A stretch of 64,000 bases of DNA from Clostridia bacterium (lineage in GTDB: Bacteria; Bacillota; Clostridia; Christensenellales; CAG-917), in contig JAVVSR010000002.1 in assembly GCA_036654095.1 (NCBI GenBank), positions 1,375 through 65,374 on the forward strand, in the 5' to 3' direction. The translations under genes were made by a program, and so were the position numbers. The notes beneath the pieces are model-generated. The model was given only the letters and a program-made list of their open reading frames with translations. It was not told the origin of the DNA and did no database searches. This document shows positions 1,463 to 32,362 of this stretch, in pieces (the stretch's first letter is position 1; each line of letters opens with the position of its first letter).

Positions 1463-4400
1463 ATGAGAAAGAGTATTATAAGAGGCATTTCTTATTGCAT
1501 AGCGCTCGTGATGATGGTTGCGCTAGTTTTCGGAATAATTGGTACATCCAATTTAACGGCAAGCGCAGTTGGAGCGCCAATCACGTCGGAAATAAAAATT
1601 GCGCACATTACAGACCTGCACTATTTTCCATTTGAGGATTGCAATGTTAAAGACCCTAACGACAAAAAATCGGATTTTTATATTAAGCTAGCAACCGACA
1701 CAAAGTTATGTCAGGAAGCAGGCACTATATTAAATGCGGTATACAAAAAAATTGTTGCGGAAAATCCCGACTATCTTGTTGTAAGCGGTGATATTACGCG
1801 TGACAGCGAATTACAAGCGCATATTGATGTAGCGAACGGGCTTAGGTATTTGCAAAACACAATTCGTGAAACAAATCCTGAGTTTCAAATATTTGTAGTT
1901 CCTGGCAACCACGACCTAGTAAACACAAACGCATCTAAATTTGACGCCAATGGAAGCCGCGCGAAAGATGCCGATGGAAACGTAATTAGCGGCGAAAAGT
2001 TAGCAACTTCTGTTTCTGAATTTCCAAAAATATACGCTGGGTTGGGATATCCTAACCTTACCGCTGAAAATCGCGCAGAATATATTGCTAAATATGTTAG
2101 TCACAGCGCGTCATTTGGATTGACGACATCATATATCGAGTCAAGCAATCTTCCAAATATTGTGTTTCACCGTTATTCGGACATAATTGGATACCCTACC
2201 GCGGACGATAAAGCAGTGAACTGCTTAACTTATGTGGCTATTATAGATAACGCAAAGGTAGCTGTATGCGGTATAGATAGCACCGAACGCAAAGCCGCCG
2301 AAAACATTTTTGGCTGGGAACACGAAACAGGCGGTCGCATAACTCAAAATTGTTTAAACTGGCTTTCGGCAAAAACCGCAGCTTCTCGTGAGGCCAACTA
2401 TACATTAATTGGAACGCTTCATCACAATGTTGCGCCGCATTACGCTATGGAAGAAAATTTAACTAAAGACTTTACTTTATACAACTGGGAAGATACCGCC
2501 ACTTACCTTGCCGACGAAGTTGGCTTGCGCTATGTATTTACCGGCCATATGCACGCGAGCGACCGCGCGCAATTTACATCATATAAAGGAAACACAATTA
2601 CCGACTTTGAAACAGGTAGTACCGTTTCATTGAAAGCGCCATCGCGCTATGTCACAATTTCAAGAACGGAATATGATAATAAGGTTTACGAAGATGTAAC
2701 GTCACTGGTCATTCCTATTGAGTCGCTTGAAAATATTCAAAGTTTTCATATTGATAAACCCACAACATTTGAAGTTCATCCCGAGTACTTTGCTTTTCAA
2801 CAAGTCACCAATTTGACCGATATGATTGAAAAAGGGCTGTATGACTTACTTATAAGACGTTTGGTTGACGGGTTCGTAAATGAAGGCCTACAAAGTATGT
2901 TATATGATTTAGTTGATGGTGTCATTCCCCCGAGCCTGTCCTTAGCGGGCTTAAAACTAGAGTTACCGCAAACAGCGCTTATGAAGGTTGTAAATATAGT
3001 CCTTGACGATTTGTTTAACAATTTAACGTATGTTTACGATGGAAAATCTTATGATAATTTAATTTCTGTGGCGCACGCCCTCGTTAATGGAGTTTTAAAT
3101 ATCGTTGTCTACACCGACGGCGAAGAAGCGTACACGCTTGAACAAGTTGGCATAAAAATGTATAAAGAACATTTGATTGGCGGAGAAGCCGCCGATTACG
3201 CCGCGCTTGACGCTAAATTTAAAGGGCTGTCGGAACGCCTTTTAACAACAGACTTAAAACAAAACACAATTAAACAGTTAGCAGATATTTTGCTTAACAC
3301 TTTAATTATGAATAAAGACTCATTAATTCCCGTTTTACTTTCACACAAATTTGACATTAGCGGGCTTACATATGACGCTTCAATAACTGACCCCGCCGCC
3401 GCTTCAAAACGTTTTACAGCGAAAGAACAAGCGGATATAACTAAACTATTTAATGTGCTTAGAGATTTAGCTGGCATTGATATTTTAGAGAAGGGTTACA
3501 TTTGTCTTAACGAAATAGTTGAATTACCGCTTGTACAAAGCTTATTGTCGAAACTTATTGATACAAAAGGTATGCCATTGCTTGATTTCGTTTATGATGC
3601 CCTCGGAAAATACTTAACCACAAGTTTTTACACCGGCTTGGGCGGAATTGTAAACAATATTGTTATGGCATTTTCCATAGACGATACTTTTGACGGCCAC
3701 ACCGCTGACATATCTAAAACCAATTTCCACGAGTTATACACCTATCGCGTTGACAACGGCTTAAATATGGGTATCACGGTAAACGGAGTTAAGTTTGGGA
3801 CAGCTTATGACGGCGAACCTCACTTTACAACAGCTACGTATGCTGACGGACGTCTTCCCTCACACGCGACCGCCACTTTTGGAGACAAAACAAATACATC
3901 GGTAAATTTGTCATTCTATACAAATCACGAAGTAAACGGTTTAGTTAAGTATCGCGTAAAGGGTTCGACAGCCGAGTGGAGTACTATTAATTCATCAGTC
4001 GAACTGAAACCAGTTGCCTTCCCCCTTATGGACTTAGGCTTGTTTGCAACATATACAAGCACATCACTAGATAAAAAGGGGACTATACCCGCAACTTTTG
4101 CCAATCGAGAAGAAGTTAAAGGCTCGGTAAAATTTGCAAATATTCATAGTGTGACACTTTCAAACTTACTTCCAAATACTGAGTACGAATATCAGTTAGT
4201 AGGTACATTTGAAGACAAAGTGTATCCAACAAAAACTAAATATTTTAAAACCGCCCTTAGCGAAGGTAGCACAAATGAGTTTACCGTACTCGCTATGACA
4301 GACGTTCAGGCTATGCTTAAATCCGATTATCAAAACGCTTTAGAGGCATTTGAAAAAATAGAAGTTGCTTATGACTTTATTATAAACTGTGGCGACGTAG

Positions 4401-5848
4401 TCGATAGTGGCAAAAACACAACTCAATGGAGTTACAGCCAAAATATTTTATCTACTGTTTGGGGCGAAACTTTGACTGTTGTTGCGGCAGGTAACCACGA
4501 AGATTCTGACTTTGCGCTAGACAACTACTACAACTTCGGAAATGCTCCATCGCAAAAAACCGAAACAGGCGTATATTATAGTTTCAATTATGGAAACGCG
4601 CACTTCACTGTTATTAATACTAACGACTCTACCGCAAAAGAAGGCTTAGGAAAAGCACAACTTGAATGGTTAGTTGCCGACCTTGCTGCCGCTAAAAATA
4701 ATCCAAATATTAAGTGGATAGTCGTTTCACAACACAAAGGCCTTTATTCGGCAGGCTCGCACAGCTATGACAGCGAAGTAATTGCTTTGCGCGGACAACT
4801 TTCAAGCATTTACTATGATTATGGCGTCGACCTTGTTTTGCAAGGACACGACCACGTTTATAACACTACCGAATTTTTAGATAGGCTTGGTAAACCCGTT
4901 AATGTTCGTGAAACCGACGGCACTGTTTTCGCGCCTAAAGGCGTTATGTATGTAACATTAGGGACTATTGGCAACAAATATTATGAATATCGCAAAAATC
5001 ATATCGTTACCGATGTTTGCAATGATACGCTTACCTACTCGGATATGCTTTCGCAACCCACATATGCGACGCTTACTTTTGCCAACGATAAACTTACAAT
5101 TTCAAACTATATGGTCGGAAATGAAAAGTTTAACAAGTCAATTAGCATCAGTAAAACTGCCATAGTTGAGGAAACCGATGTTAAACTTGATAAAATTACA
5201 TTCGGTGGCGCAATCGTTTCTGACGGAGCAAATATCTTGGCTACGAAAGATACTCTTCTTAATGCGCTTAATATTGCGCGCTTCGATTTTGGCTCAAACT
5301 GCCTAATTACTGTAAATAATGTTACCGCGCAAGAAAATATCTATAAGGCTTTACATAATGGCGCAAATACTATTTCCATTAAGCTGTTGCCCGAAAACGG
5401 CGACGAGGCAGGCGCGAAAGTAATTTCATTTGGCGTCTATATTTTAAATTACGAGCTGACTGTGAATGGTAAAACATATAATGTTGGCGACACTATTACT
5501 GTTCCTAGTAAAACAAAATCCATTGACATTAAATACCTAGCCGACGAAAACAACGAAAACGCTGAAACAATTATTGTTGAAAATAACAAATTGAAAAAAG
5601 GCGACAATACAGTTGTTGTTAAAGTCACTAGCAAAAATGCCGATGGCACAATTTCCACCGATTATACTTATTCTATTAATGTTTATGTAGAAAAGGGTAA
5701 TTCTAATATTCCGCTTATTTTAGGCGCTGTTGGCGGCGTCATTCTTGTTGGCGGAGTGGTTTTAGCAATAGTTATGGTTAAGCGTAAAGATAAATCATTA
5801 GATAATGGAGATAAAACGGATAAAAACTCTGACGATAATGCCGCGTAA
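1463..5848 (+). CDS. large cell-surface protein with two calcineurin-like metallophosphoesterase domains, a purple-acid-phosphatase-type N-terminal beta domain and a C-terminal TM anchor
   Basis: RBS AGGAGG lies 7 nt upstream, and the N-terminus is a signal/TM segment. MPE motif set 1: GDITRD, VPGNHD, TGHMHASD. MPE motif set 2: CGDVVDSG, AAGNHE, QGHDHVY. An FN3-like stretch (LLPNTEYEYQL) precedes the second domain. The C-terminus has IPLILGAVGGVILVGGVVLAIVMV followed by a charged tail. Confidence 0.8.
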   Translation: MRKSIIRGISYCIALVMMVALVFGIIGTSNLTASAVGAPITSEIKIAHITDLHYFPFEDCNVKDPNDKKSDFYIKLATDTKLCQEAGTILNAVYKKIVAENPDYLVVSGDITRDSELQAHIDVANGLRYLQNTIRETNPEFQIFVVPGNHDLVNTNASKFDANGSRAKDADGNVISGEKLATSVSEFPKIYAGLGYPNLTAENRAEYIAKYVSHSASFGLTTSYIESSNLPNIVFHRYSDIIGYPTADDKAVNCLTYVAIIDNAKVAVCGIDSTERKAAENIFGWEHETGGRITQNCLNWLSAKTAASREANYTLIGTLHHNVAPHYAMEENLTKDFTLYNWEDTATYLADEVGLRYVFTGHMHASDRAQFTSYKGNTITDFETGSTVSLKAPSRYVTISRTEYDNKVYEDVTSLVIPIESLENIQSFHIDKPTTFEVHPEYFAFQQVTNLTDMIEKGLYDLLIRRLVDGFVNEGLQSMLYDLVDGVIPPSLSLAGLKLELPQTALMKVVNIVLDDLFNNLTYVYDGKSYDNLISVAHALVNGVLNIVVYTDGEEAYTLEQVGIKMYKEHLIGGEAADYAALDAKFKGLSERLLTTDLKQNTIKQLADILLNTLIMNKDSLIPVLLSHKFDISGLTYDASITDPAAASKRFTAKEQADITKLFNVLRDLAGIDILEKGYICLNEIVELPLVQSLLSKLIDTKGMPLLDFVYDALGKYLTTSFYTGLGGIVNNIVMAFSIDDTFDGHTADISKTNFHELYTYRVDNGLNMGITVNGVKFGTAYDGEPHFTTATYADGRLPSHATATFGDKTNTSVNLSFYTNHEVNGLVKYRVKGSTAEWSTINSSVELKPVAFPLMDLGLFATYTSTSLDKKGTIPATFANREEVKGSVKFANIHSVTLSNLLPNTEYEYQLVGTFEDKVYPTKTKYFKTALSEGSTNEFTVLAMTDVQAMLKSDYQNALEAFEKIEVAYDFIINCGDVVDSGKNTTQWSYSQNILSTVWGETLTVVAAGNHEDSDFALDNYYNFGNAPSQKTETGVYYSFNYGNAHFTVINTNDSTAKEGLGKAQLEWLVADLAAAKNNPNIKWIVVSQHKGLYSAGSHSYDSEVIALRGQLSSIYYDYGVDLVLQGHDHVYNTTEFLDRLGKPVNVRETDGTVFAPKGVMYVTLGTIGNKYYEYRKNHIVTDVCNDTLTYSDMLSQPTYATLTFANDKLTISNYMVGNEKFNKSISISKTAIVEETDVKLDKITFGGAIVSDGANILATKDTLLNALNIARFDFGSNCLITVNNVTAQENIYKALHNGANTISIKLLPENGDEAGAKVISFGVYILNYELTVNGKTYNVGDTITVPSKTKSIDIKYLADENNENAETIIVENNKLKKGDNTVVVKVTSKNADGTISTDYTYSINVYVEKGNSNIPLILGAVGGVILVGGVVLAIVMVKRKDKSLDNGDKTDKNSDDNAA

Positions 5849-6101: not shown

Positions 6102-8537
6102 CTATTTGTCAACTTCTTCTTGTTCATTAACAACCGCCGTCTGCTCGCAAACATCGTCGCTAATCGGCGCGCCTTCACCTTCAATACTAGGTTCGGTCGC
6201 AAGTGTTTTTGCATCATATCCGCAATTAGGCTCGTTGTCGACATCTGTATAATCAGCATCTATATCTTCCAAAGCGCGTTCTTTCTTTATCCGTTTGCCC
6301 GAACTATCTTTCGGGGGTTTTTTCATTGCATTTTTTAAAAATGGCCTATCCATAAACGTCAACACGGCTGGCAATACAAATATTACTAGAACCGCGCTAA
6401 TTATTGCGCCCCTCGCTATAAGCATAGTTATTTCAGCTACAATAAGGTTTGATGTCATAAGATAAACACAGAAGCACGCCGCCGCTAAAATTGACGAACT
6501 TGTAAGTATTGACATAATCGAGCTTGTTGTTGCTTGATATGCCGCCTGCGGAGGCATCAATTTTTTTCTAAATTCTCGATACTTCGTCGTTACAAGAATT
6601 GCGTAGTCAACCGTACCGCCCATTTGTATTGAACTTATTATGATATATGACATAAAGTTGATTTGATGGCCTATTAGCTTTTGAATAGCTAAATTTACCC
6701 AAATACCAAATTGAATAATAAGCATCAAAATTAAGCTGTGTTTCAGTGATTTGAAGCTAAAAATCATTATTACTATGATAATTAAAACTGACGCGATAGA
6801 AACACGGTTAAAGTCAGTTGGAGTAATGAACGCAAAGTCTTTCGCCGCCTGCGCCATACCTGTTACATAATAATCTTGCCCGGGGAAATGCTTAGCAATT
6901 AATGCCTGAATATCATTAATTGTTTTAAACATATCATCACTTTCAATGTTAGAGTTTGTCATTCCAACAGTGTACATACCATAACCGTTGTTTACATACT
7001 GCCCCGATTGACTTTTAATTGCGCCACCCATTGGGCCCTCTAGCGCTTCCTTAGGAAGTAGCGCGTTAAGCCCTAGCATAAAGCTAACAGCAGGAGAACC
7101 ATCGGGATTTTTTAGCCCGCGAAGTTCCTCAATAAAAATGTAGTGTGTCGTCATGCTTTCTTCGCTATCCAAATCGATTGGAACTGAAATGACTAGCTGA
7201 TTTGCAAGCGTATCAACTTTGTCGTAAAGCGCGCCCTCTTTAGGCACTTCCTTGACAAAATTAAAGTATCCGTATCCCAAATTGCTTTGAAGCAAAACTG
7301 CTGGGAAAATAGCTATTAACAGGCCAACAACCACAACTGTCCTATATTTAATTATGCCTTTGACGGGTTTTTTAAATTTTAGGTCAATAGACTTATGTTG
7401 CCAGGTTTCCATTTTGTTTCTTAGCAATATAACCAAAACAGGTTGGAAGAAAATAACTGTCAAAAAGCTTAATCCAATGCCCTTAGCAAGCACTAACCCC
7501 AAGTCCATACCTATTGTGAACCGCATAAAGAACAATGCAATAAATCCGCCAACAGTGGTCAACGCGCTTGAAAATACCGCATTAAATGTACGAGGAATTG
7601 TTTTTTCCAAGGCCTCAAACGGGTCAAGCGTTGTGCGTTTTTCCGTTCGATAAGCGTGTAAGAAAAAAACAGCATAGTCCATCGCGAGCGCCAACTGAAG
7701 TATCGCAGACGCTGAAAACGTAATTATTGATGTGCTTGGTAAAATAATATTGCTTCCTAAATTAAGTATTATTGAAATTCCAAGTGTCGCCAATAAAATA
7801 ATTGGGTCAATCCAAGATTTCGTAAACATAAATAGAATAACCAAAACAATAACAACACCGGCAATACTATATTTCCAAACTTCATCAAGTGTACTTTCAA
7901 AAATTGTTTTTGCAAGTTGAGTCGAACCGCCAATATAACATTCTGCGCTTGAATTTTCTTGCTCAATAATATCCTCAATAGCGTCGATTGTATCAAACGA
8001 CTCACTCGACGACGGCCCAAAATTTAATGTAATCATCAATACATACGTGTCGTCTGTATCTATGTCGGCAGTTCCGTTGTTGCTGAACATAATATTATCT
8101 ATATAACTAGGATTATATGGCGAACCATCGGGATACTTTTCACCCAACGCTAGCAATAACTTTAAACCCAAAAAGAACTCCGAATCTTTCCACAAACAAG
8201 TTGCAACAGCTTTATCCTCAGGCTCTAAAGCTGTATCCGAAACAACAATATTTTTTCCGTTTTTAGTTAAGTTGCTAATTTTCCCACAGATATTATAAAT
8301 TTCATCAGACGTCGCGCCCTTAACGCCAACAATTACGTCAGCCTCTATTCCAAAGTTGTCTTTTAAAAACTTTTGGCCGTCAGATGTCATAGTACCTTTT
8401 GGCAAATATGAAGTCAAATCCGAATTAACTCGTTTAAAAACCGTCGGCAATGCCACGCACGACAAAATTGTCAGCACAACAAACACAACTAATAGAATTT
8501 TATACCTTTTTACAATAAACTTAGCTAGCTTTTTCAT
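6102..8537 (-). CDS. MMPL/RND-superfamily membrane transporter
   Basis: Two ~6-TM bundles are separated by large extracytoplasmic loops, and a TetR gene lies divergently upstream. Start moved to MKKLAKFIVKRYK (ATG at 8537). The upstream extension in the ORF track has no support. Confidence 0.7.
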   Translation of the reverse strand: MKKLAKFIVKRYKILLVVFVVLTILSCVALPTVFKRVNSDLTSYLPKGTMTSDGQKFLKDNFGIEADVIVGVKGATSDEIYNICGKISNLTKNGKNIVVSDTALEPEDKAVATCLWKDSEFFLGLKLLLALGEKYPDGSPYNPSYIDNIMFSNNGTADIDTDDTYVLMITLNFGPSSSESFDTIDAIEDIIEQENSSAECYIGGSTQLAKTIFESTLDEVWKYSIAGVVIVLVILFMFTKSWIDPIILLATLGISIILNLGSNIILPSTSIITFSASAILQLALAMDYAVFFLHAYRTEKRTTLDPFEALEKTIPRTFNAVFSSALTTVGGFIALFFMRFTIGMDLGLVLAKGIGLSFLTVIFFQPVLVILLRNKMETWQHKSIDLKFKKPVKGIIKYRTVVVVGLLIAIFPAVLLQSNLGYGYFNFVKEVPKEGALYDKVDTLANQLVISVPIDLDSEESMTTHYIFIEELRGLKNPDGSPAVSFMLGLNALLPKEALEGPMGGAIKSQSGQYVNNGYGMYTVGMTNSNIESDDMFKTINDIQALIAKHFPGQDYYVTGMAQAAKDFAFITPTDFNRVSIASVLIIIVIMIFSFKSLKHSLILMLIIQFGIWVNLAIQKLIGHQINFMSYIIISSIQMGGTVDYAILVTTKYREFRKKLMPPQAAYQATTSSIMSILTSSSILAAACFCVYLMTSNLIVAEITMLIARGAIISAVLVIFVLPAVLTFMDRPFLKNAMKKPPKDSSGKRIKKERALEDIDADYTDVDNEPNCGYDAKTLATEPSIEGEGAPISDDVCEQTAVVNEQEEVDK

Positions 8538-8611
8538 ATTATTATTACCCAAATGACAAATCAAACATCTATTTAAAACATAAAAATTCAAATCGCCATT
8601 TGAAACTCTCC

Positions 8612-8648
8612 TTGACAATATTGTATATACACTTGTACTAATTGTCAA
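8612..8648. promoter_or_regulatory. candidate TetR operator overlapping divergent sigma-A-type promoters
   Basis: Inverted repeat TTGACAAT(8612-8619)...ATTGTCAA(8641-8648) with an inner palindrome TGTATATACA (8622-8631). On the minus strand it reads TTGACA-17nt-TACAAT, pointing at the MMPL gene. Confidence 0.45.
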
Positions 8649-8759
8649 TAAATTTATGGCATTTAATTAGACAAATATAACATAAATTATTATTATCAAA
8701 ATTTTGGCAGTTTTATTTAAAATTAGTTATTACTTTTTTTTAATTGAATGACAATTTGC

Positions 8760-8787
8760 TTTACATTTTTAGGTGATGTGTTATAAT
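8760..8787 (+). promoter_or_regulatory. candidate sigma-A promoter of the TetR gene
   Basis: TTTACA (8760-8765), 16-nt spacer, then extended -10 TGtTATAAT (TATAAT at 8782-8787), about 30 nt upstream of the start codon. Confidence 0.45.
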
Positions 8788-8816
8788 TAAAAATGAATTT
8801 ACTAAAAGGGGTTTTT

Positions 8817-9428
8817 ATGAAAAAAACAGATTTGACAAAAAAAACGATTATTGACAGCACTATTAAAATACTTCGTAAAAACGGTAATGTCACAGTTAAG
8901 GAAATTGCCGCCGACGCAAATGTAAATATTGCCGCAATAAATTATCATTTTAACGATAAACAAAACTTAATAGTTATTGTTGTGCGCCGTCTTTTAACCG
9001 AATTCAAGGCCACAATGGATGAATTTTTAAATACATCCGTTTCAACCTCGGCGGAAATATACAGCGAAATCAAAGGTTTTTTGGATACTTTTTATCAATT
9101 TGCTTTTGAAAATATTGGCATAATTAAATATATCCTTATCCCCAATAACAATGATATATTGGAAAGTTGTAGCCGCCTATTTATGTCGCAGTTTTCTATC
9201 GACTCGGAGTTTACTCACAAAATTGTTTCTAAACTTGGCGAAATTAACACCCAGCACACTTCCGAACAATTAAAGGTTAAATACGTATTTTTGTTTAGCG
9301 CGTTTGCCTTTCCTTTAATTTTTCAACTTAATTTAAAAGATTTTGACAACAAATCTCTTTTCCAAATTAGCGAAGGCGCAATTAGAGATATTTATATCGA
9401 ACAACTTACCAAGGTTATATTGGATTAG
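8817..9428 (+). CDS. TetR/AcrR family transcriptional regulator
   Basis: N-terminal HTH (TVKEIAADANVNIAAINYHFNDKQNL). RBS AAAAGGGG precedes the ATG at 8817. Divergent from the MMPL transporter. Confidence 0.8.
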   Translation: MKKTDLTKKTIIDSTIKILRKNGNVTVKEIAADANVNIAAINYHFNDKQNLIVIVVRRLLTEFKATMDEFLNTSVSTSAEIYSEIKGFLDTFYQFAFENIGIIKYILIPNNNDILESCSRLFMSQFSIDSEFTHKIVSKLGEINTQHTSEQLKVKYVFLFSAFAFPLIFQLNLKDFDNKSLFQISEGAIRDIYIEQLTKVILD

Positions 9429-9439
9429 TTTTAAATTTA

Positions 9440-9591
9440 TTTTATACTTATATTAGATGTTTTTATACTTATATTAGATGTTTTATAAAGCGTGTTCGGC
9501 TCAACCTTTTAATGTACATTTTTTGTTATAAAGCGTGTTCGGCTCAATCTTTTAGTGTACATTTTTTGTTGTAAAGCGTATTCGGCTAAAC
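9440..9591. repeat. tandem direct repeats: a 20/21-bp unit x2, then a 43-bp unit x2.5
   Basis: TTTTATACTTATATTAGATG occurs twice (9440-9480). TTATAAAGCGTGTTCGGCTCAACCTTTTAATGTACATTTTTTG occurs at 9483-9525, 9526-9568 (3 mismatches) and partially at 9569-9590. Confidence 0.9.
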
Positions 9592-9606
9592 ATATTACGC
9601 AAACTC

Positions 9607-9741
9607 TTTTTGAGTTTGAGATTGAGATTGAGTTTAGGGTTTTTGAGTTTTAAGTTTTAGGGTTTAGGGTTTAGGGTTTAGGGTTTAGGGTTTAGGGTTT
9701 AGGGTTTAGGGTTTTAGGGTTTTTGAGTTTTTGAGTTTTAG
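9607..9741. repeat. heptamer microsatellite with a perfect (TTTAGGG)8 core
   Basis: The core at 9656-9711 is eight perfect TTTAGGG units, followed by TTTTAGGG. It is flanked by degenerate relatives (TTTGAG, ATTGAG, TTTTTGAG). Confidence 0.95.
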
Positions 9742-9759
9742 TTAAAATACATATTTAAA

Positions 9760-9802
9760 ACGCGCCACAAAGTTACAAATAACTTAGCGGCGCGTTTTTT
9801 TA
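9760..9802. terminator. rho-independent terminator between convergent genes
   Basis: ACGCGCCAC-18nt-GCGGCGCGT stem, then T7 on the plus strand. The minus-strand reading has a weaker T-run. Confidence 0.6.
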
Positions 9803-9833
9803 TACATCAATATAAGTTTAAAATTAAATAAAT

Positions 9834-11495
9834 TTAAGTATTAGCGCTTTCGCTTCCTTTGCGAATTTCTGTACGTTTAATTTTACCCGAAATAGTTTTT
9901 GGCAACTCCGAAACAAATTCAATCACACGCGGATATTTGTATGGCGCAGTTGCGTGCTTAACATAAGTTTGTATCTCTTTTTTCAACTCCTCAGTGCCTT
10001 CAACGCCCTTTATTAAAACTATTGTAGCCTTGACAATTTGGCCGCGCACAGGGTCAGGAACGCCTGTCACTGCGCACTCTAAAACGGAAGGATACTCCAT
10101 AATAACGCTTTCAATTTCAAACGGACCTATGCGATATCCCGACGATTTAATCAAGTCATCCGTTCTACCAACAAACCAATAATAGCCGTCCTCGTCAAAC
10201 CAAGCCATATCCCCCGTATGATAAACGCCATCATGAATAACAGCATTGGTATTTACCTCATCGTGATAATAACCTTTAAACAAACCGACAGGCGGAACAC
10301 TGACATCAATACAAACCTCGCCAACTTCACCGGCTACCGCCAAATTACCTTCGCTTGTAATTAGTCTAATTTTATATTGTGGGTTTGGTTTTCCCATTGA
10401 ACCGGGCTTACTTGTAGCGCCAATAAGGTTAGCAAGCGTTAAACTTGTTTCAGTCTGCCCAAAACCTTCCATAAGTTTTAGCCCAGTTGCATTTTGTAGT
10501 TGTTTAAAAACTTCAGGGTTTAAAGCCTCGCCTGCTGTTGTAACATATTGCAAACTTGATAAATCGTATTTAGATAAATCCTCTTTAATAAAAAATCTAT
10601 AAATTGTAGGTGGCGCGCAAAACGTTGTAATTCTATATTTTTGAATTAGTGTCAATAAATCGTCAGCATTAAATTTGGTAAAATCATAAACAAAAATTGG
10701 CGCAGATAAAATCCACTGACCATAGAGTTTTCCCCACAATGCTTTTCCCCACCCAGTATCGGCAACGGTAAGGTGTAATCCCTCAACATTGACATTATGC
10801 CACCATTTTGCGGTTGTAAAGTGCGCAATAGCGTAAGTATAGTCATGAATAGCTAGTTTAGGATAGCCCGTTGTTCCCGACGTAAAGAACATAACCATTG
10901 TGTCAGATTTTGAGGTGGCGTCATTCCCTTCTGGACGCAAAAAAGTCGACGAAAAAGTTGCCATTTCCGAATCAAAGTCACGCCAACCTTCACGTGAACA
11001 ACCTGTTATTACCTTGACTTTTACTTGCCCACAATCGGCAACGGCTTTTTCAACTTCTGTGGCGATTGTACCGCTGCTGCTACAAATTACAGCTTTCACT
11101 TCTGCCAAATTAATACGATATACTAAGTCCTTTTTCATAAGTTGGTCGGTGGCAGGTATTGCAACCGCGCCTAGCTTGTGCAACGCAAGTATTGAAAACC
11201 AAAATTGGTAATGACGCCGTAAAATTAACAATACTTTATCGCCTTTTTTTATACCTAACGATTTAAAATAATTTGCGGTCATCGAACTGTATTCCGAAAT
11301 ATCTTTAAAGGTAAATTTCCTTTCCGATTTATCATCAGCAATCCATATCATTGCTACTTTATTTGGCTTAACTTTGCCATAATAATCTATAATGTCAAAA
11401 GCAAAATTAAAATTTTCGGGTATATTAAACGATATATCCGTAAGATGACCAAATTCGTCGATAGTCTCCTTGATGTACTTTTCGTAAAGTTCCAT
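9834..11495 (-). CDS. AMP-forming acyl-CoA synthetase, medium-chain (ACSM/MacS-like) family
   Basis: AMP-binding motif FFTSGTTGYPK, GYYHDE...YHTGD, and C-terminal SGKIKR. The N-terminal region resembles medium-chain acyl-CoA synthetases. Confidence 0.8.
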   Translation of the reverse strand: MELYEKYIKETIDEFGHLTDISFNIPENFNFAFDIIDYYGKVKPNKVAMIWIADDKSERKFTFKDISEYSSMTANYFKSLGIKKGDKVLLILRRHYQFWFSILALHKLGAVAIPATDQLMKKDLVYRINLAEVKAVICSSSGTIATEVEKAVADCGQVKVKVITGCSREGWRDFDSEMATFSSTFLRPEGNDATSKSDTMVMFFTSGTTGYPKLAIHDYTYAIAHFTTAKWWHNVNVEGLHLTVADTGWGKALWGKLYGQWILSAPIFVYDFTKFNADDLLTLIQKYRITTFCAPPTIYRFFIKEDLSKYDLSSLQYVTTAGEALNPEVFKQLQNATGLKLMEGFGQTETSLTLANLIGATSKPGSMGKPNPQYKIRLITSEGNLAVAGEVGEVCIDVSVPPVGLFKGYYHDEVNTNAVIHDGVYHTGDMAWFDEDGYYWFVGRTDDLIKSSGYRIGPFEIESVIMEYPSVLECAVTGVPDPVRGQIVKATIVLIKGVEGTEELKKEIQTYVKHATAPYKYPRVIEFVSELPKTISGKIKRTEIRKGSESANT

Positions 11496-11553
11496 AGCAA
11501 TTACCTTTACCCTATTTTATTTGCTTAATACAAATTTCATTTAAATTTTGCAA

Positions 11554-11795
11554 TAAAAATGCTTCGTCTCCATAGAGACGAAGCATTAAACAACTCCGCG
11601 GTACCACTCTAATTGCTTGCACGCAAGCCACTTTGCCATATCCAACAATATGTTCCCTATAACGGGGGGCCCGTCTTGACTTAATAGTTTCCGTTCGGCC
11701 AAGCAACTGAAAGGTGATTAGATTTAAGCAAACCATTGTTTCGCACCAGCCAACAACTCTCTGAGATTTGTATTTAAATCACGTCCTTATAAACG
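11554..11795 (-). promoter_or_regulatory. T-box riboswitch leader (tRNA-sensing transcription attenuator)
   Basis: The minus strand carries the stem I AGAGAG bulge and CUGGUGCGAAA distal loop, and an F-box-like CCGUUA. The T-box sequence AAUUAGAGUGGUACCGCG lies at 11614-11597. Terminator AAUGCUUCGUCUC-uaug-GAGACGAAGCAUU plus a U-run lies at 11587-11554, immediately upstream of the synthetase RBS. Confidence 0.85.
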
Positions 11796-11868
11796 CCTTT
11801 AAATGGTATTCAATTTTACTTAGTGTTATTAAAACACATTTAAACAATTTTGTCAATTATTTTAACAA

Positions 11869-14184
11869 TTATTGCTCATCTTCCGAGGGATTATTATCGT
11901 CGTCGGAATAATAAGTATCGTTATCCTCTGAACCATCTGCCTCATAGGTTTCATAGTTTTCGTCAGGGCTAACGTTTTCATCATATGCTTGACCAACATC
12001 AGCGCTTTCGTCATCAGACAGTTGACCAGTAGCTTGAAGAGCTGCGCGCCTAGCATTGATAAGCCTTTCTAGTTTAGCAGGATTAGGCTTCCTTAAACCA
12101 ACAAACAACAAACTTCCAATAAACAAACTCGCCAAAACGATAGTCAAAATTAAAATTGTCATTTCCGTTGATGTTAAGCCTTTCTTTTTGTAGTTAATTT
12201 GAATATTTTGACTATCGATAATGTTAGAAACTGTAATAGTAGCAACCTTGTCATTATCAATTTTTTGTTCAAATCCGTTGACGAAAATAGACTCAATGAC
12301 ATAACCTTTGTTGGCCTTTACTATAATTTGTTGAGTCTGCCCGCTGTAAACTTTCGTCGCGCCCTCACACGTACCGCCTAAAGCAACATTTGACGAATAA
12401 ATAATATCGCATTTTTTAGGTTGGAATATTGCAACAAAACTTGCGCTTGCAGTGATATTTTCAACAGTAGTTACGCGTTCGGTTGTGATACGAATGCCGT
12501 CTTTTTCCCAAGCGATAAATTCATAGCCGTCGCTAGGATACGCGCCTAAAGTTGTTAATCCGCCAACGCTTATATCCGAACCGTTAGATGACGTAACTCC
12601 GCCCATACCTGAATTATTTGCCCTAACTGAAATTTTAATTTTAACAACAACTTCTTCCTCAATAGGAGGGGGGAGTTCGCTAATTTTTGCGCCTACAACC
12701 AACGATGACGAAACATTAAAAGACATTTGCCTTGAGCTTGAACTGCCAGCCATTCTATTTCCATTATTAGTCCAATAATCAAATTTCTTGCCTTCTAAAC
12801 CATCTTCTGCATAAGTCAAAGTCACCAACTCACCTATGGCATAAATATTGTTGCCCTTGGATGAAAGTGAAATTTTAATATTGCTGTCAGCCAAATTTTC
12901 TTTCACAATGGTAAATGTTTTAACAGATGCGATAGGCGTCAACACGACATCAGCATTAATAACAAATTCATAAACATCTTGATTGACTGCTGGTTTAACG
13001 ACGCCACCTACAACAACTTCCCAATGTTCAAAATTAAGTTTTTCCGAGCTAAACACAACTCTAACGGGCGTACCTTCAACGTATGTACCTGCGCCAGTTT
13101 TGTTATATTCAAATCCGCTGATGTTAGGAACATTGTTTATAGTAACAGTGTAGCGCTTCGTTGTAACGCTTATTGGCACAAATTCTGCTGATATTGTAAT
13201 ACTTTCCAATGAACCATCAATCGTAAATTGATAGCCTAACGGATTAGCGTTAGCAACTGGTTGACCGTTAATTAAAAGCTTAGAAAATTCAACTCCGCTA
13301 TCGCTTTTAGTTAAAACTTTTACAGTTATATTATCGCCCTTATAGTATGGAGCAGCGTGACTAAGTTCAATACTTCCATAAACTGGGTCGGGAGCAATTA
13401 CGTTGACCGAATACTCCTTACGTGTGCAAACAACAGGAATAGCGTTGTATTGTGGGTCAAAGTTTGAAATTGTATAAGTAAATTCATTTGCCGAACCGCT
13501 AACTTTAACCAAATTACCTAAAGACATTTTGATATTATTTAGGTCATAGCCTTCAGCAAGTGTAATTTTAACAACAACGTCATCACCCTTTTCAATATAT
13601 GCTTTTGTAAATTTCAACGTAGGATTATTAACGGATACTAACGGCCGTCCATTTATGGTATCAAAATAAGCGGTTGCGCCAACATCGGCATTAACCGACA
13701 CGACATACGCTTGATTTGTCACACAAAAATATATTTCATTGGTATTTTTAAAAGTATATGTAAATTCAAACTTAGTAATTAAACCTGTTTCAACTCCATT
13801 TTCAACGCCCATAATTTCTTTAGCAATTAAGCCAACATCGGGGCCATCTTTTGAGCCATTAGCCCACTTTACGAACTTTTTGTTGCCGGGTATCAATGTG
13901 AAAGTAACAGAACTGCCAACCGTTCCTGAAAATAGAATTGGATTGATAGAAGTCCCTTGTTCTGTTTTATACTTCGGCTGACCCAAAGCGTCTATGCCAT
14001 CTTGAAACACAATTTGCGCGTCGCTATCAAACTTTAACGTCAAGGTAGGATTTGCATTCGGAACAGGCGCGCCTTCTCCCGCGGCGTTAGCCTCAGTACG
14101 CGTGTCATTCGTTGCAAAAATTGAAAATGAAAACACTAACGCTAAGGTCAACATCACAACAATCAGTTTGGCATTTTTTTTCAT
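11869..14184 (-). CDS. cell-surface protein with Listeria/Bacteroides-type (InlB B-repeat-like) beta repeats, a C-terminal TM anchor and an acidic tail
   Basis: Signal peptide MKKNAKLIVVMLTLALVFSFSIFA. Recurrent x-F-x-x-W motifs (KFVKWANGS, FEHWEVV, FDYWTNNG, FIAWEKDG). TM segment ILILTIVLASLFIGSLLFVGL, then a D/E-rich tail. Confidence 0.55.
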   Translation of the reverse strand: MKKNAKLIVVMLTLALVFSFSIFATNDTRTEANAAGEGAPVPNANPTLTLKFDSDAQIVFQDGIDALGQPKYKTEQGTSINPILFSGTVGSSVTFTLIPGNKKFVKWANGSKDGPDVGLIAKEIMGVENGVETGLITKFEFTYTFKNTNEIYFCVTNQAYVVSVNADVGATAYFDTINGRPLVSVNNPTLKFTKAYIEKGDDVVVKITLAEGYDLNNIKMSLGNLVKVSGSANEFTYTISNFDPQYNAIPVVCTRKEYSVNVIAPDPVYGSIELSHAAPYYKGDNITVKVLTKSDSGVEFSKLLINGQPVANANPLGYQFTIDGSLESITISAEFVPISVTTKRYTVTINNVPNISGFEYNKTGAGTYVEGTPVRVVFSSEKLNFEHWEVVVGGVVKPAVNQDVYEFVINADVVLTPIASVKTFTIVKENLADSNIKISLSSKGNNIYAIGELVTLTYAEDGLEGKKFDYWTNNGNRMAGSSSSRQMSFNVSSSLVVGAKISELPPPIEEEVVVKIKISVRANNSGMGGVTSSNGSDISVGGLTTLGAYPSDGYEFIAWEKDGIRITTERVTTVENITASASFVAIFQPKKCDIIYSSNVALGGTCEGATKVYSGQTQQIIVKANKGYVIESIFVNGFEQKIDNDKVATITVSNIIDSQNIQINYKKKGLTSTEMTILILTIVLASLFIGSLLFVGLRKPNPAKLERLINARRAALQATGQLSDDESADVGQAYDENVSPDENYETYEADGSEDNDTYYSDDDNNPSEDEQ

Positions 14185-32275: not shown

Positions 32276-32362
32276 GCCGATGTGATGGAATTGGCAGACG
32301 TAGTGGACTCAAAATCCACCGGTGGCAACACCGTGCCGGTTCGAGTCCGGCCATCGGCACCA
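32276..32362 (+). tRNA. tRNA-Leu (anticodon CAA)
   Basis: Acceptor GCCGATG/CATCGGC. Anticodon arm GTGGA-CTCAAAA-TCCAC. Long variable arm. T arm GCCGG-TTCGAGT-CCGGC. Discriminator A and encoded CCA. Confidence 0.9.

Follow-up and report, generated by a model that had tools for sequence, protein, structure and literature searches.

Rumen and gut anaerobes, as well as methanogens, obtain isoleucine from 2-methylbutyrate and valine from isobutyrate through reductive carboxylation, a route of classical physiology. That rumen and gut anaerobes require isobutyrate, 2-methylbutyrate, and isovalerate was recognized decades ago, and the three acids serve as feed additives. The branched-acid route is omitted from a genomic reconstruction of amino-acid synthesis in the gut (PMC9026213). 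Two described ligases activate such acids. Macs of Methanosarcina acetivorans (PDB accession number 3ETC) prefers 2-methylbutyrate; its Trp259 is critical, and a glycine residue stands in for Trp416 of Acs, which restricts the latter enzyme to acetate (PMC10455477). MbcS of S. aureus is selective for 2-methylbutyrate and isobutyrate, and its role is the supply of lipid primers (PMC10026030). With regard to regulation, the closest described systems are the branched-chain T-box leaders of Firmicutes, e.g., that of ileS with the specifier AUC and that of B. subtilis ilv-leu; AUC is the usual isoleucine specifier of T-boxes, following the third-position C rule (PMC7778990). The literature searched, including two surveys of T-boxes (PMC2494555 and PMC7778990), reports no acyl-CoA ligase or VOR gene preceded by a T-box, which agrees with the view taken in a preliminary description of this DNA that such a ligase lies outside the standard regulon; prior annotation in RegPrecise or TBDB is possible.

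The window analyzed here, i.e., the whole 64-kb stretch of DNA, contains a T-box leader that lies directly upstream of the open reading frame of an AMP-forming acyl-CoA ligase, as had been described. The match to the Rfam model RF00230 extends from 11802 to 11571 on the minus strand and covers model positions 1 to 219 of 219 (107 bits against a gathering threshold of 93, E = 1.2e-22), and scanning the 64-kb window with RF00230 gave no further T-box, even at E ≤ 0.01. All of the elements named in the preliminary description are present at the coordinates checked (Table 1). As the best explanation of the locus as a whole, we consider it fairly probable that an isoleucine T-box induces a 2-methylbutyrate ligase, most likely for the purpose of isoleucine salvage; the leader would then be a class-I transcriptional T-box riboswitch with predicted specificity for tRNA-Ile and control of a single gene.

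Table 1 Features of the T-box leader and the ligase gene, in the direction of transcription (window positions)
Feature	Position	Strand	Description
Likely promoter	11828-11856	-	-35 TTGACA (11856-11851); 17-nt spacer ending in TGT; -10 TTTAAT (11833-11828); read from sequence
Stem I	11702-11797	-	Outer helix GGCG/UGCU, base helix AAGG/CCUU, specifier loop, helix GAUUUAA/UUAAAUC, AG bulge, distal loop; Rfam alignment
tRNA-elbow platform	11741-11762	-	AG bulge AGAGAG (11762-11757); helix GUUGUU/AACAAU; distal loop GGCUGGUGCGA (11751-11741)
Specifier AUC (isoleucine) and next base A	11715-11718	-	AUC 11718-11716, A 11715; just 5' of base-helix strand CCUU (11714-11711)
F-box CCGUUA	11660-11665	-	Rfam alignment
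T-box sequence AAUUAGAGUGGUACCGCG	11597-11614	-	Rfam alignment; UGGU bulge 11606-11603
Antiterminator	11574-11614	-	AGAG, bulge UGGUACC, and GCGGA; pairs with UUCGUCUCU (11582-11574)
Leader intrinsic terminator	11550-11587	-	13-bp stem and 4-nt loop (11587-11558), then a U-rich tail with UUUAUU; terminator scan
Macs/MbcS-like AMP-forming short branched-chain acyl-CoA ligase	9834-11495	-	553 aa; Pfam AMP-binding (PF00501) and AMP-binding_C (PF13193)
Terminator hairpin past the ligase stop codon	9757-9798	-	Fold of -24.9 kcal/mol, z = -6.5, then UUUU

Similar to the branched-chain leaders of Firmicutes, the leader has the full RF00230 architecture with an AG bulge, a distal loop, an F-box, a UGGN bulge, and a competing terminator. 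The AG bulge and the distal loop GGCUGGUGCGA match the Rfam consensus sequences AGAGA and GgUUGGUGaaA, respectively; together they form the Stem I platform that docks the tRNA elbow. Across the alignment of 55 Stem I sequences, the distal helix of Stem I is paired at 96.7%, and each of its six pairs shows compensatory changes. Folding of the terminator yields the 13-bp hairpin (z = -3.2 for a 101-nt segment), the 5' strand of which (11587-11575) overlaps the 3' strand of the antiterminator, so that the two structures exclude each other. The -35 hexamer TTGACA is kept in all three of the closest relatives; the promoter is not listed by a strict consensus scan because its -10 hexamer lacks A at position 2. 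On the other hand, the window T-box differs from the Firmicutes leaders in that it controls an acyl-CoA ligase rather than a gene for a synthetase, for de novo biosynthesis, or for transport, lacks the S-turn, and belongs to a subclade in which the K-turn is degenerate. The specifier loop of the window, with ACGU as its 5' strand and UAAUCA as its 3' strand, has no canonical AGUA ... GAA S-turn; the loops of relatives read AC and UAUCA, and a canonical S-turn is found only in the distant Val T-box of locus L072. The K-turn region at the base of Stem I is UUUAU / UCAGU in the window, and the window and its three closest relatives read GUUUAU ... (U/C)CAGU in place of the GA motif UGA ... GA. 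More distant relatives retain a K-turn-type UGUGACGA ... CUGAG.

The specifier, for which serine, leucine, and isoleucine had been considered in the preliminary description, is AUC-A and therefore encodes isoleucine, because the helix at its base covaries across 55 related Stem I sequences. The register was fixed by MAFFT alignment and base-pair counts over these sequences, in which 92.9% of the cells are paired; none of 500 shuffles was as good. The conserved closing helix consists of AAGG (11788-11785) and CCUU; this base helix beside AUC is paired at 99.5% and shows compensatory changes in 4 of 4 pairs. As in other T-boxes, the triplet occupies the 3' end of the specifier loop and is separated from the base helix by a single base, which in T-boxes is usually a purine. 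In the specifier columns, all ligase-proximal T-boxes have AUC followed by A, as in the window, or by C, and second T-boxes have GUA-G; variation in the alignment columns rules out the -1 and +1 registers. The three closest relatives, in which the ligases are 69 to 77% identical and synteny is the same, keep AAUCA together with a covarying helix above it, and their T-boxes score 102 to 124 bits. Leucine found no support, and no ligase under a Leu specifier was observed among 80 genome loci. The UGGU bulge is complementary to a tRNA 3' end of ACCA and thus fits an A73 discriminator, as had been argued before. The discriminator of bacterial tRNA-Ile is typically A73. A tRNA-Ile gene, sought for comparison of the discriminator base, does not occur within the window or the 60 fetched loci; L073 holds a tRNA-Val(UAC) with A73, which fits the leaders that combine GUA with UGGU.

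The best PDB match of the ligase is Macs (E = 9e-204, 681 bits, 54% identity over 530 residues); the matches of the ligase to Acs proteins score at most 281 bits. The two domains are shared with Macs, as are the tryptophan and glycine residues of the pocket: W232 (in AKWW) and G346 (in EGFGQTET) align with the Macs pocket positions and do not vary among 15 homologs. Among the NCBIfam models, MbcS is the best match; its score of 467 bits is well under the equivalog cut-off of 850, and by this measure the ligase is a relative of MbcS, not an equivalog. The HTH-cupin domain that most orthologs carry is missing from the window ligase; in the cultured species Neobittarella massiliensis, the T-box is followed by HTH-cupin and then by the ligase. 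The preferred acid of Macs corresponds to isoleucine, and the two acids of MbcS match the Ile and Val specifiers seen here. Macs is archaeal, with no T-box regulation reported in the Macs literature searched, and no riboswitch control is described for MbcS (PMC10026030). On the basis of the identity to Macs and the best model, the window ligase most likely activates 2-methylbutyrate, and perhaps isobutyrate, to the CoA thioester. The branched-acid substrate proposed earlier is thus favored in the form of 2-methylbutyrate, while isovalerate, the acid corresponding to leucine, has no support. In a tree of 85 ligase domains, the enzymes under Ile T-boxes and those under Val T-boxes are not cleanly split; therefore, the substrate cannot be read from the sequence of the enzyme, and no specificity residues can be proposed.

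A T-box lies upstream of the ligase gene in 60 of the 74 assessable orthologous loci of Clostridia. Every ortholog T-box with a readable Stem I has AUC except at two loci, where the best-matching ligase is under a GUA T-box. Twelve orthologous loci are without the core motif, and Rfam finds no T-box in them either; T-box control is therefore common, not universal. When the distant Val-type ligase of L072 was used to seed a scan of metagenomes, 80 loci of a subfamily 46 to 54% identical were obtained, none of which has an upstream T-box motif (two motif matches lie inside coding sequence); on this evidence, control by T-box is limited to the Clostridia subfamily. Because a terminator follows the ligase gene in the window, the T-box unit is monocistronic, as are most orthologs.

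At approximately 10 loci, the ligase gene is followed by genes for a P-loop protein, a ferredoxin, and a 2-oxoacid:ferredoxin oxidoreductase of the VorB type, in some cases with IlvE in addition. A single Ile T-box precedes the ligase, P-loop protein, ferredoxin, and oxidoreductase alpha, beta, and gamma genes in L055, L058, and L078, with gaps of at most 30 nt, and the unit of L058 also includes IlvE. With 549 bits, the alpha subunit exceeds the VorB cut-off of 399, and IlvE, with 495 bits, exceeds its own of 307. A second T-box, of the Val type (GUA-G), stands before a ligase paralog together with the same cluster of oxidoreductase genes in L023, L043, L053, L059, L074, and L075, and a truncated second Val-type T-box is present in L034. 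The ligase, oxidoreductase, and IlvE are thus encoded as a set in relatives such as L058 and L075, and the three steps are those of the classical route: the acid is activated, a VorB-type enzyme carboxylates it with ferredoxin, and IlvE transaminates the product. The classical work was physiological, whereas the Clostridia genes and their T-box control are undescribed in the literature searched. The link to reductive carboxylation that had been suggested for the ligase is therefore supported in the relatives. In the window itself, a search of the 64 kb gave no VOR oxidoreductase, IlvE or other aminotransferase, acetolactate synthase, other ilv gene, or HTH-cupin gene, and the ligase gene has unrelated neighbors, namely PEPCK, a surface protein, TetR, and MMPL.

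For this organism, we infer the following response to tRNA, reaction of the ligase, and downstream route. Transcription would start near 11820, and Stem I would offer AUC to the GAU anticodon of tRNA-Ile, with the platform of AG bulge and distal loop stacking on the tRNA elbow. When the tRNA is uncharged, its 3' ACCA would pair with the UGGU bulge and stabilize the antiterminator, and RNA polymerase would enter the ligase gene; when the tRNA is charged, the 13-bp terminator would form and transcription would halt. The induced enzyme of the Macs/MbcS type would convert 2-methylbutyrate to 2-methylbutyryl-CoA, a VOR-type 2-oxoacid:ferredoxin oxidoreductase would carboxylate the latter reductively to 2-oxo-3-methylvalerate, and a branched-chain aminotransferase would complete the route to isoleucine. 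Isoleucine starvation would thus switch on the scavenging of 2-methylbutyrate, with reductive carboxylation to isoleucine as its probable purpose. For an ATP-consuming ligase, being induced by uncharged tRNA fits an anabolic role, not a catabolic one.

The same Ile T-box and the same enzyme could also serve membrane lipids, with 2-methylbutyryl-CoA mainly priming anteiso branched-chain fatty acids, as with MbcS in S. aureus. The anteiso primer normally derives from isoleucine, so that a shortage of isoleucine would lead the cell to scavenge the free acid for lipids. Because no oxidoreductase gene lies in the 64-kb window, primer supply is still a rival to isoleucine salvage; the absence of IlvE from the window, the stand-alone genes of most orthologs, and the demonstrated role of MbcS, the best NCBIfam model (PMC10026030), point in the same direction. 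At the informative loci, however, the ligase shares an operon with ferredoxin, a VorB-type oxidoreductase, and IlvE rather than with fab genes, and the Val-specific T-boxes on paralogs fit amino-acid supply. We therefore regard lipid priming as the main purpose as rather unlikely; since both uses draw on the acyl-CoA, one does not preclude the other. A general CoA ligase for acetate or propionate, with a T-box unrelated to branched acids, is an improbable reading of the enzyme. Some sources name homologs "acetyl-CoA synthetase," and acetate-CoA ligase models give lower yet significant scores, but the acetate-restricting tryptophan of Acs is replaced by glycine and the Macs-type tryptophan is present (PMC10455477), the ligase is far closer to Macs than to any Acs, and the conserved Ile and Val T-boxes with VOR and IlvE partners indicate branched substrates.

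The leader itself might be a decaying or nonfunctional T-box, with the gene constitutive or under other control; the missing S-turn, the replaced G.A pairs of the K-turn, and a specifier loop cut down to a few bases would agree with such decay. Nevertheless, the reduced architecture is kept with compensatory changes both in relatives at 69 to 77% protein identity and in dozens of distant loci, and the leader retains an intact terminator, antiterminator, T-box sequence, and platform, which makes decay very improbable. A response to tRNA-Ser is hardly credible. It would require UCU-A in an alternative fold closed by GUGAU/AUCAC, or UCA one base downstream; the helix can pair in this single sequence, UCN in the +1 register always is a serine codon, and the U of UGGU could wobble with G73. 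Over the 55 sequences, however, only 51.7% of this helix is paired, with 4 of its 5 pairs unpaired in 41 to 48 sequences; the closing helix proposed in the preliminary description is chance complementarity that relatives do not conserve. In addition, Ile-type leaders have an invariant A as the first codon base; in the GUA leaders, this base is G and at the same time the C has become A, so that their +1 register would read the stop codon UAG. The operon partners, moreover, are branched-chain amino-acid genes.

Beyond the isoleucine T-box of the window, there is about an even chance that Ile and Val T-boxes mark a widespread and apparently undescribed regulon of gut and rumen Clostridia for the conversion of branched short-chain acids to branched-chain amino acids, comprising a Macs-like ligase (often fused to HTH-cupin), a ferredoxin, a VorB-type oxidoreductase, and IlvE. 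If so, the specifier would predict the substrate of the ligase, i.e., 2-methylbutyrate for AUC and isobutyrate for GUA, and the stand-alone ligase of the window would be the starvation-induced entry step of the branched-acid route. Bacteria that appear auxotrophic for isoleucine or valine from their de novo genes may be prototrophic when given these acids. The T-box serves as an independent label, readable from sequence, of the amino acid that a gene serves, and here it would link a large family (at least 595 confirmed matches in the genome scan), whose annotation reads "AMP-binding protein" or "acetyl-CoA synthetase," with the supply of isoleucine and valine. This label gives testable predictions of substrates and could alter auxotrophy calls and models of cross-feeding for Oscillospiraceae, Ruminococcus, and related bacteria. 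Salvage from fermentation acids would join synthetases, de novo biosynthesis, and transport in the T-box regulon, and the leaders described here represent a T-box class that appears to work without an S-turn.

The minus strand of positions 9600-12100 was read, and Rfam was run over the entire window. The covariance model RF00230, by which the preliminary description had wished the T-box to be checked, matches 11571-11802 (-) over its full length with 107 bits (curated cut-off 93; E = 1.2e-22), and every T-box element listed in that description was found. No second T-box was found in the 64 kb, even in a permissive rescan; tRNA-Leu(CAA) at 32276-32362 is the sole other RNA match and the only tRNA, and a tRNA-Ile gene is absent from the window. 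The 3' strand of the antiterminator lies within the 5' strand of the terminator, which makes the two structures mutually exclusive. Two hexamers just upstream form a plausible promoter, as judged from their sequence. The reading frame of the ligase starts 62 nt past the end of the terminator stem, and its stop codon is followed by a strong hairpin and a U-run (-24.9 kcal/mol, z = -6.5); the T-box-regulated unit is therefore the ligase gene alone. By score and most defining features the RNA is a normal T-box, with a reduced specifier loop and a degenerate K-turn, and it is very probably a functional isoleucine T-box.

Features of the window and of related loci (window positions unless a locus is named)
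Feature	Position	Strand	Remark
Promoter -35, TTGACA (plausible)	11856-11851	-	conserved in close relatives
Promoter -10, TTTAAT (plausible)	11833-11828	-	preceded by a 17-nt spacer ending in TGT
AG bulge AGAGAG	11762-11757	-	coordinates checked
Distal loop GGCUGGUGCGA	11751-11741	-	coordinates checked
F-box CCGUUA	11665-11660	-	coordinates checked
T-box sequence AAUUAGAGUGGUACCGCG	11614-11597	-	coordinates checked
Terminator	11587-11558	-	13-bp stem, then U-rich tail; coordinates checked
Antiterminator 3' strand UUCGUCUCU	11582-11574	-	
AMP-forming ligase ORF	9834-11495	-	553 aa; AMP-binding and AMP-binding_C domains
TTTAGGG/CCCTAAA heptamer, about 13 copies	9628-9723		plant-type telomere repeat; TetR-ligase intergenic region
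43-nt unit x2.5	9483-9591		TetR-ligase intergenic region
21-nt unit x2	9440-9484		TetR-ligase intergenic region
HTH-cupin-ligase fusion (examples)	L009 5347-7647; L075 2566-4842		
P-loop protein and ferredoxin	L075 7647-8658; L058 7004-7874		also in eight other loci

Because the specifier loop is exactly where the Rfam alignment is uncertain (posterior values of 5), the leaders of relatives were used to choose among the Ser, Leu and Ile specifiers considered previously. In a MAFFT alignment, every ligase-proximal T-box has AUC-A or AUC-C as the four bases directly 5' of the 3' strand of the Stem I base helix, a pattern that the window leader matches (CUA-AUC-A-CCUU) and that inspection by eye also revealed in the relative L036 (AUC-A); a second set of T-boxes carries GUA-G at this position. 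Pairs were counted for two candidate structures on 55 Stem I sequences (alignment A2). The Rfam register, which exposes AUC-A, has 92.9% of its cells paired, a value reached by 0 of 500 shuffles, and its base helix (columns 10-13 with 103-106) shows 99.5% pairing and compensatory changes in 4/4 pairs (AAGG/CCUU in the window; GAAG/CUUC, GAGG/CCUC, GGAG/CUCC, and GGGG/CCCC elsewhere). The closing helix GUGAU/AUCAC of the preliminary description, which exposes the serine codon UCU-A, is just 51.7% paired, and at four of its five specific pairs, 41-48 of the 55 sequences do not pair. A -1 register gives no codon, since any base (U, C, A, G) can precede AUC, and a +1 register was rejected because the GUA leaders would then read UAG. 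With the Rfam register best paired and the others failing, the comparison assigns the specifier as AUC (11718-11716), which retains isoleucine from the earlier choices and discards serine. From the bulge UGGU, an A73 discriminator is expected on the matching tRNA, and A73 fits bacterial tRNA-Ile.

The leaders of the window subclade depart from the textbook T-box in two points. The specifier loop (in the window, 5' ACGU at 11781-11784 and 3' UAAUCA at 11715-11720) is without the AGUA/GAA S-turn, as in nearly all leaders of the family, and in the K-turn of the window and its three closest relatives other bases take the place of the G.A pairs (GUUUAU ... CAGU; window 11789-11793 / 11706-11710). 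More distant relatives retain the K-turn (UGUGACGA ... CUGAG). Since both changes are conserved, they look like a working reduced variant of Stem I.

Scanning genomes with 15 aligned homologs as the query provided 80 Clostridia loci, mostly from MAGs (Oscillospiraceae, Ruminococcus, Acutalibacteraceae, and Christensenella); their ligases share 58-66% identity with that of the window. In 60 of the 80, the ligase reading frame is preceded by the T-box core motif TGGTACCGCG. Without six truncated contigs, 74 loci are assessable, and the T-box is thus kept by orthologs in 60/74; those without the motif are twelve in which Rfam finds no T-box and two more. Sampling a more distant ligase subfamily from metagenomes revealed no T-boxes, and the pairing is therefore specific to the Clostridia subfamily and no artefact of method. 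The closest homologs (P0003, P0007, and P0006; 69-77% identity) have the gene order of the window, i.e., PEPCK, a variable surface protein, leader, ligase, and a convergent TetR gene, with an MMPL transporter following in two of the three. Their leaders exceed the Rfam cut-off (124, 102, and 112 bits, respectively), keep AAUCA before the base helix, and show compensatory substitutions in the helix above the specifier loop. One Clostridia-typical ortholog with a fused HTH-cupin part (L066) is on a contig binned as Victivallales, which could reflect mis-binning or horizontal transfer. Just downstream of a T-box-less ortholog (L040), two c-di-GMP-I riboswitch aptamers lie in tandem (7832-7914 and 7986-8068).

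Most orthologs are proteins of about 765 aa in which an XRE-type HTH and then a cupin domain precede the C-terminal ligase. The HTH-cupin part is a separate gene between T-box and ligase in L036, L067, L080, and the cultured Neobittarella massiliensis (L087 8399-8998), which carries an AUC T-box; neither the window nor its closest relatives nor L045 have this part. A DNA-binding and ligand-binding module that is fused to a CoA ligase under T-box control suggests that regulation has a second layer.

Among solved structures, the ligase best matches the medium-chain acyl-CoA synthetase of Methanosarcina acetivorans (Macs; 3ETC) (E = 9e-204, 681 bits, 54% identity over 530 residues); the next structures reach at most 380 bits and acetyl-CoA synthetases at most 281 bits. 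The preferred substrate of Macs is 2-methylbutyrate, its Trp259 is critical, and a Gly stands where Acs has an acetate-restricting Trp (PMC10455477). The corresponding W232 and G346 of the window ligase are invariant in the 15 homologs. Among NCBIfam models, MbcS of S. aureus scores highest (467 bits, under the equivalog cut-off of 850); this enzyme selectively activates 2-methylbutyrate and isobutyrate (PMC10026030). Both characterised relatives thus favour acids that correspond to isoleucine or valine, and the window protein is a relative of both and an equivalog of neither. These similarities agree with the branched-acid substrate proposed earlier; the substrate is probably a short branched acid, chiefly 2-methylbutyrate.

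The 2-oxoacid:ferredoxin oxidoreductase genes that the preliminary description had suggested looking for occur beside the ligase in relatives and not in the 64-kb window, which is also without IlvE, acetolactate synthase, and HTH-cupin genes; unrelated housekeeping genes surround its ligase. In L055, L058, and L078, one Ile T-box precedes the ligase, a CbiA/ParA-like P-loop protein, a 4Fe-4S ferredoxin, and oxidoreductase alpha, beta, and gamma subunits, with intergenic gaps of at most 30 nt. The alpha subunit of L058 is above the VorB cut-off of NCBIfam (549 bits vs 399), as is its additional branched-chain aminotransferase above that of IlvE (495 vs 307). In L053, L059, L074, and L075, after the Ile T-box and ligase come a GUA (Val) T-box, a paralogous fused ligase, and the P-loop/ferredoxin cluster, and then oxidoreductase subunits wherever the contig continues (L059, L074, and L075); L075 also has a CN-hydrolase and IlvE. 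L023 has this layout with the second ligase fragmented into short ORFs (8441-9499), which probably reflects pseudogene formation or faulty assembly. L043 comprises a Val T-box, ligase, IlvE, P-loop protein, ferredoxin, and oxidoreductase alpha subunit, the contig of L034 ends within a second Val T-box, and in L072 a more distant unfused ligase stands behind a canonical GUA T-box with an S-turn. The Val and Ile leaders of relatives are full-length Rfam matches (E at most 1e-13), several of them slightly under the high cut-off at 71-90 bits. Other neighbours include an acetolactate-synthase-like gene (L009) and IlvE (L022).

The P-loop protein (about 220 aa, no NCBIfam match) and the small ferredoxin are always located between the ligase and the VorB-type genes; the former may serve the oxidoreductase in maturation or iron-sulfur delivery. 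Ile-type and Val-type ligases within one genome are closely related (L059, L074, L053, and L075, 3211 vs 6001, where they are sisters in the tree), and it therefore seems that duplication with an AUC-to-GUA switch occurred more than once or that copies were homogenised. Further T-boxes lie near ligase loci (L013, ~740-1000; L016, ~740-1000 and ~10900-11170; L058, 150-394; L051, ~7090-7350; L060, ~11890-12150; L074, 4336-4561 (-)). The specifier loop of some contains GAA-CUC-A (Leu); one T-box precedes a gene with a 2-isopropylmalate synthase-like start.

Branched-acid routes to isoleucine and valine are known from the physiology of rumen anaerobes. The findings agree with standard T-box logic, by which uncharged tRNA-Ile would stabilise the antiterminator and allow transcription into the ligase gene. 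Induction of an ATP-spending enzyme when isoleucine is scarce would fit anabolic use of 2-methylbutyrate; ferredoxin-dependent reductive carboxylation by a VorB-type enzyme and transamination by IlvE would complete the route, as in the operons of relatives, from which we infer these later steps for the window organism. The main rival, by analogy with MbcS, is that the acyl-CoA product enters anteiso fatty-acid synthesis, and since both uses share this product, they may coexist. We moderately favour the whole chain including isoleucine salvage. An acyl-CoA ligase had been regarded as no standard T-box regulon member; indeed, a T-box-controlled acyl-CoA ligase, a T-box-controlled VOR, and the salvage route are unmentioned in the full-text literature, T-box surveys, and gut amino-acid biosynthesis reconstruction searched, with earlier database annotation being possible. 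The novelty appears to lie in the pairing, the riboswitch itself being conventional. The specifier provides a functional label for an extensive enzyme family with poor annotation, and for Clostridia of the gut and rumen it makes the genetic basis of their dependence on branched acids directly testable, e.g., in N. massiliensis.

The 405-nt intergenic region between the convergent TetR and ligase genes contains three tandem repeat arrays within 9440-9723, at a position that measures merely 28-58 nt in close relatives. In a second, independent assembly of this locus (L082) the copy is shorter and variant, and the array is thus real and variable in length. Elsewhere in the window, 1463-5848 (+) encodes a 1461-aa protein with calcineurin-like phosphoesterase and purple-acid-phosphatase domains, the N-terminus of which gives weak, sub-cut-off matches to two NCBIfam anti-phage phosphoesterase models.
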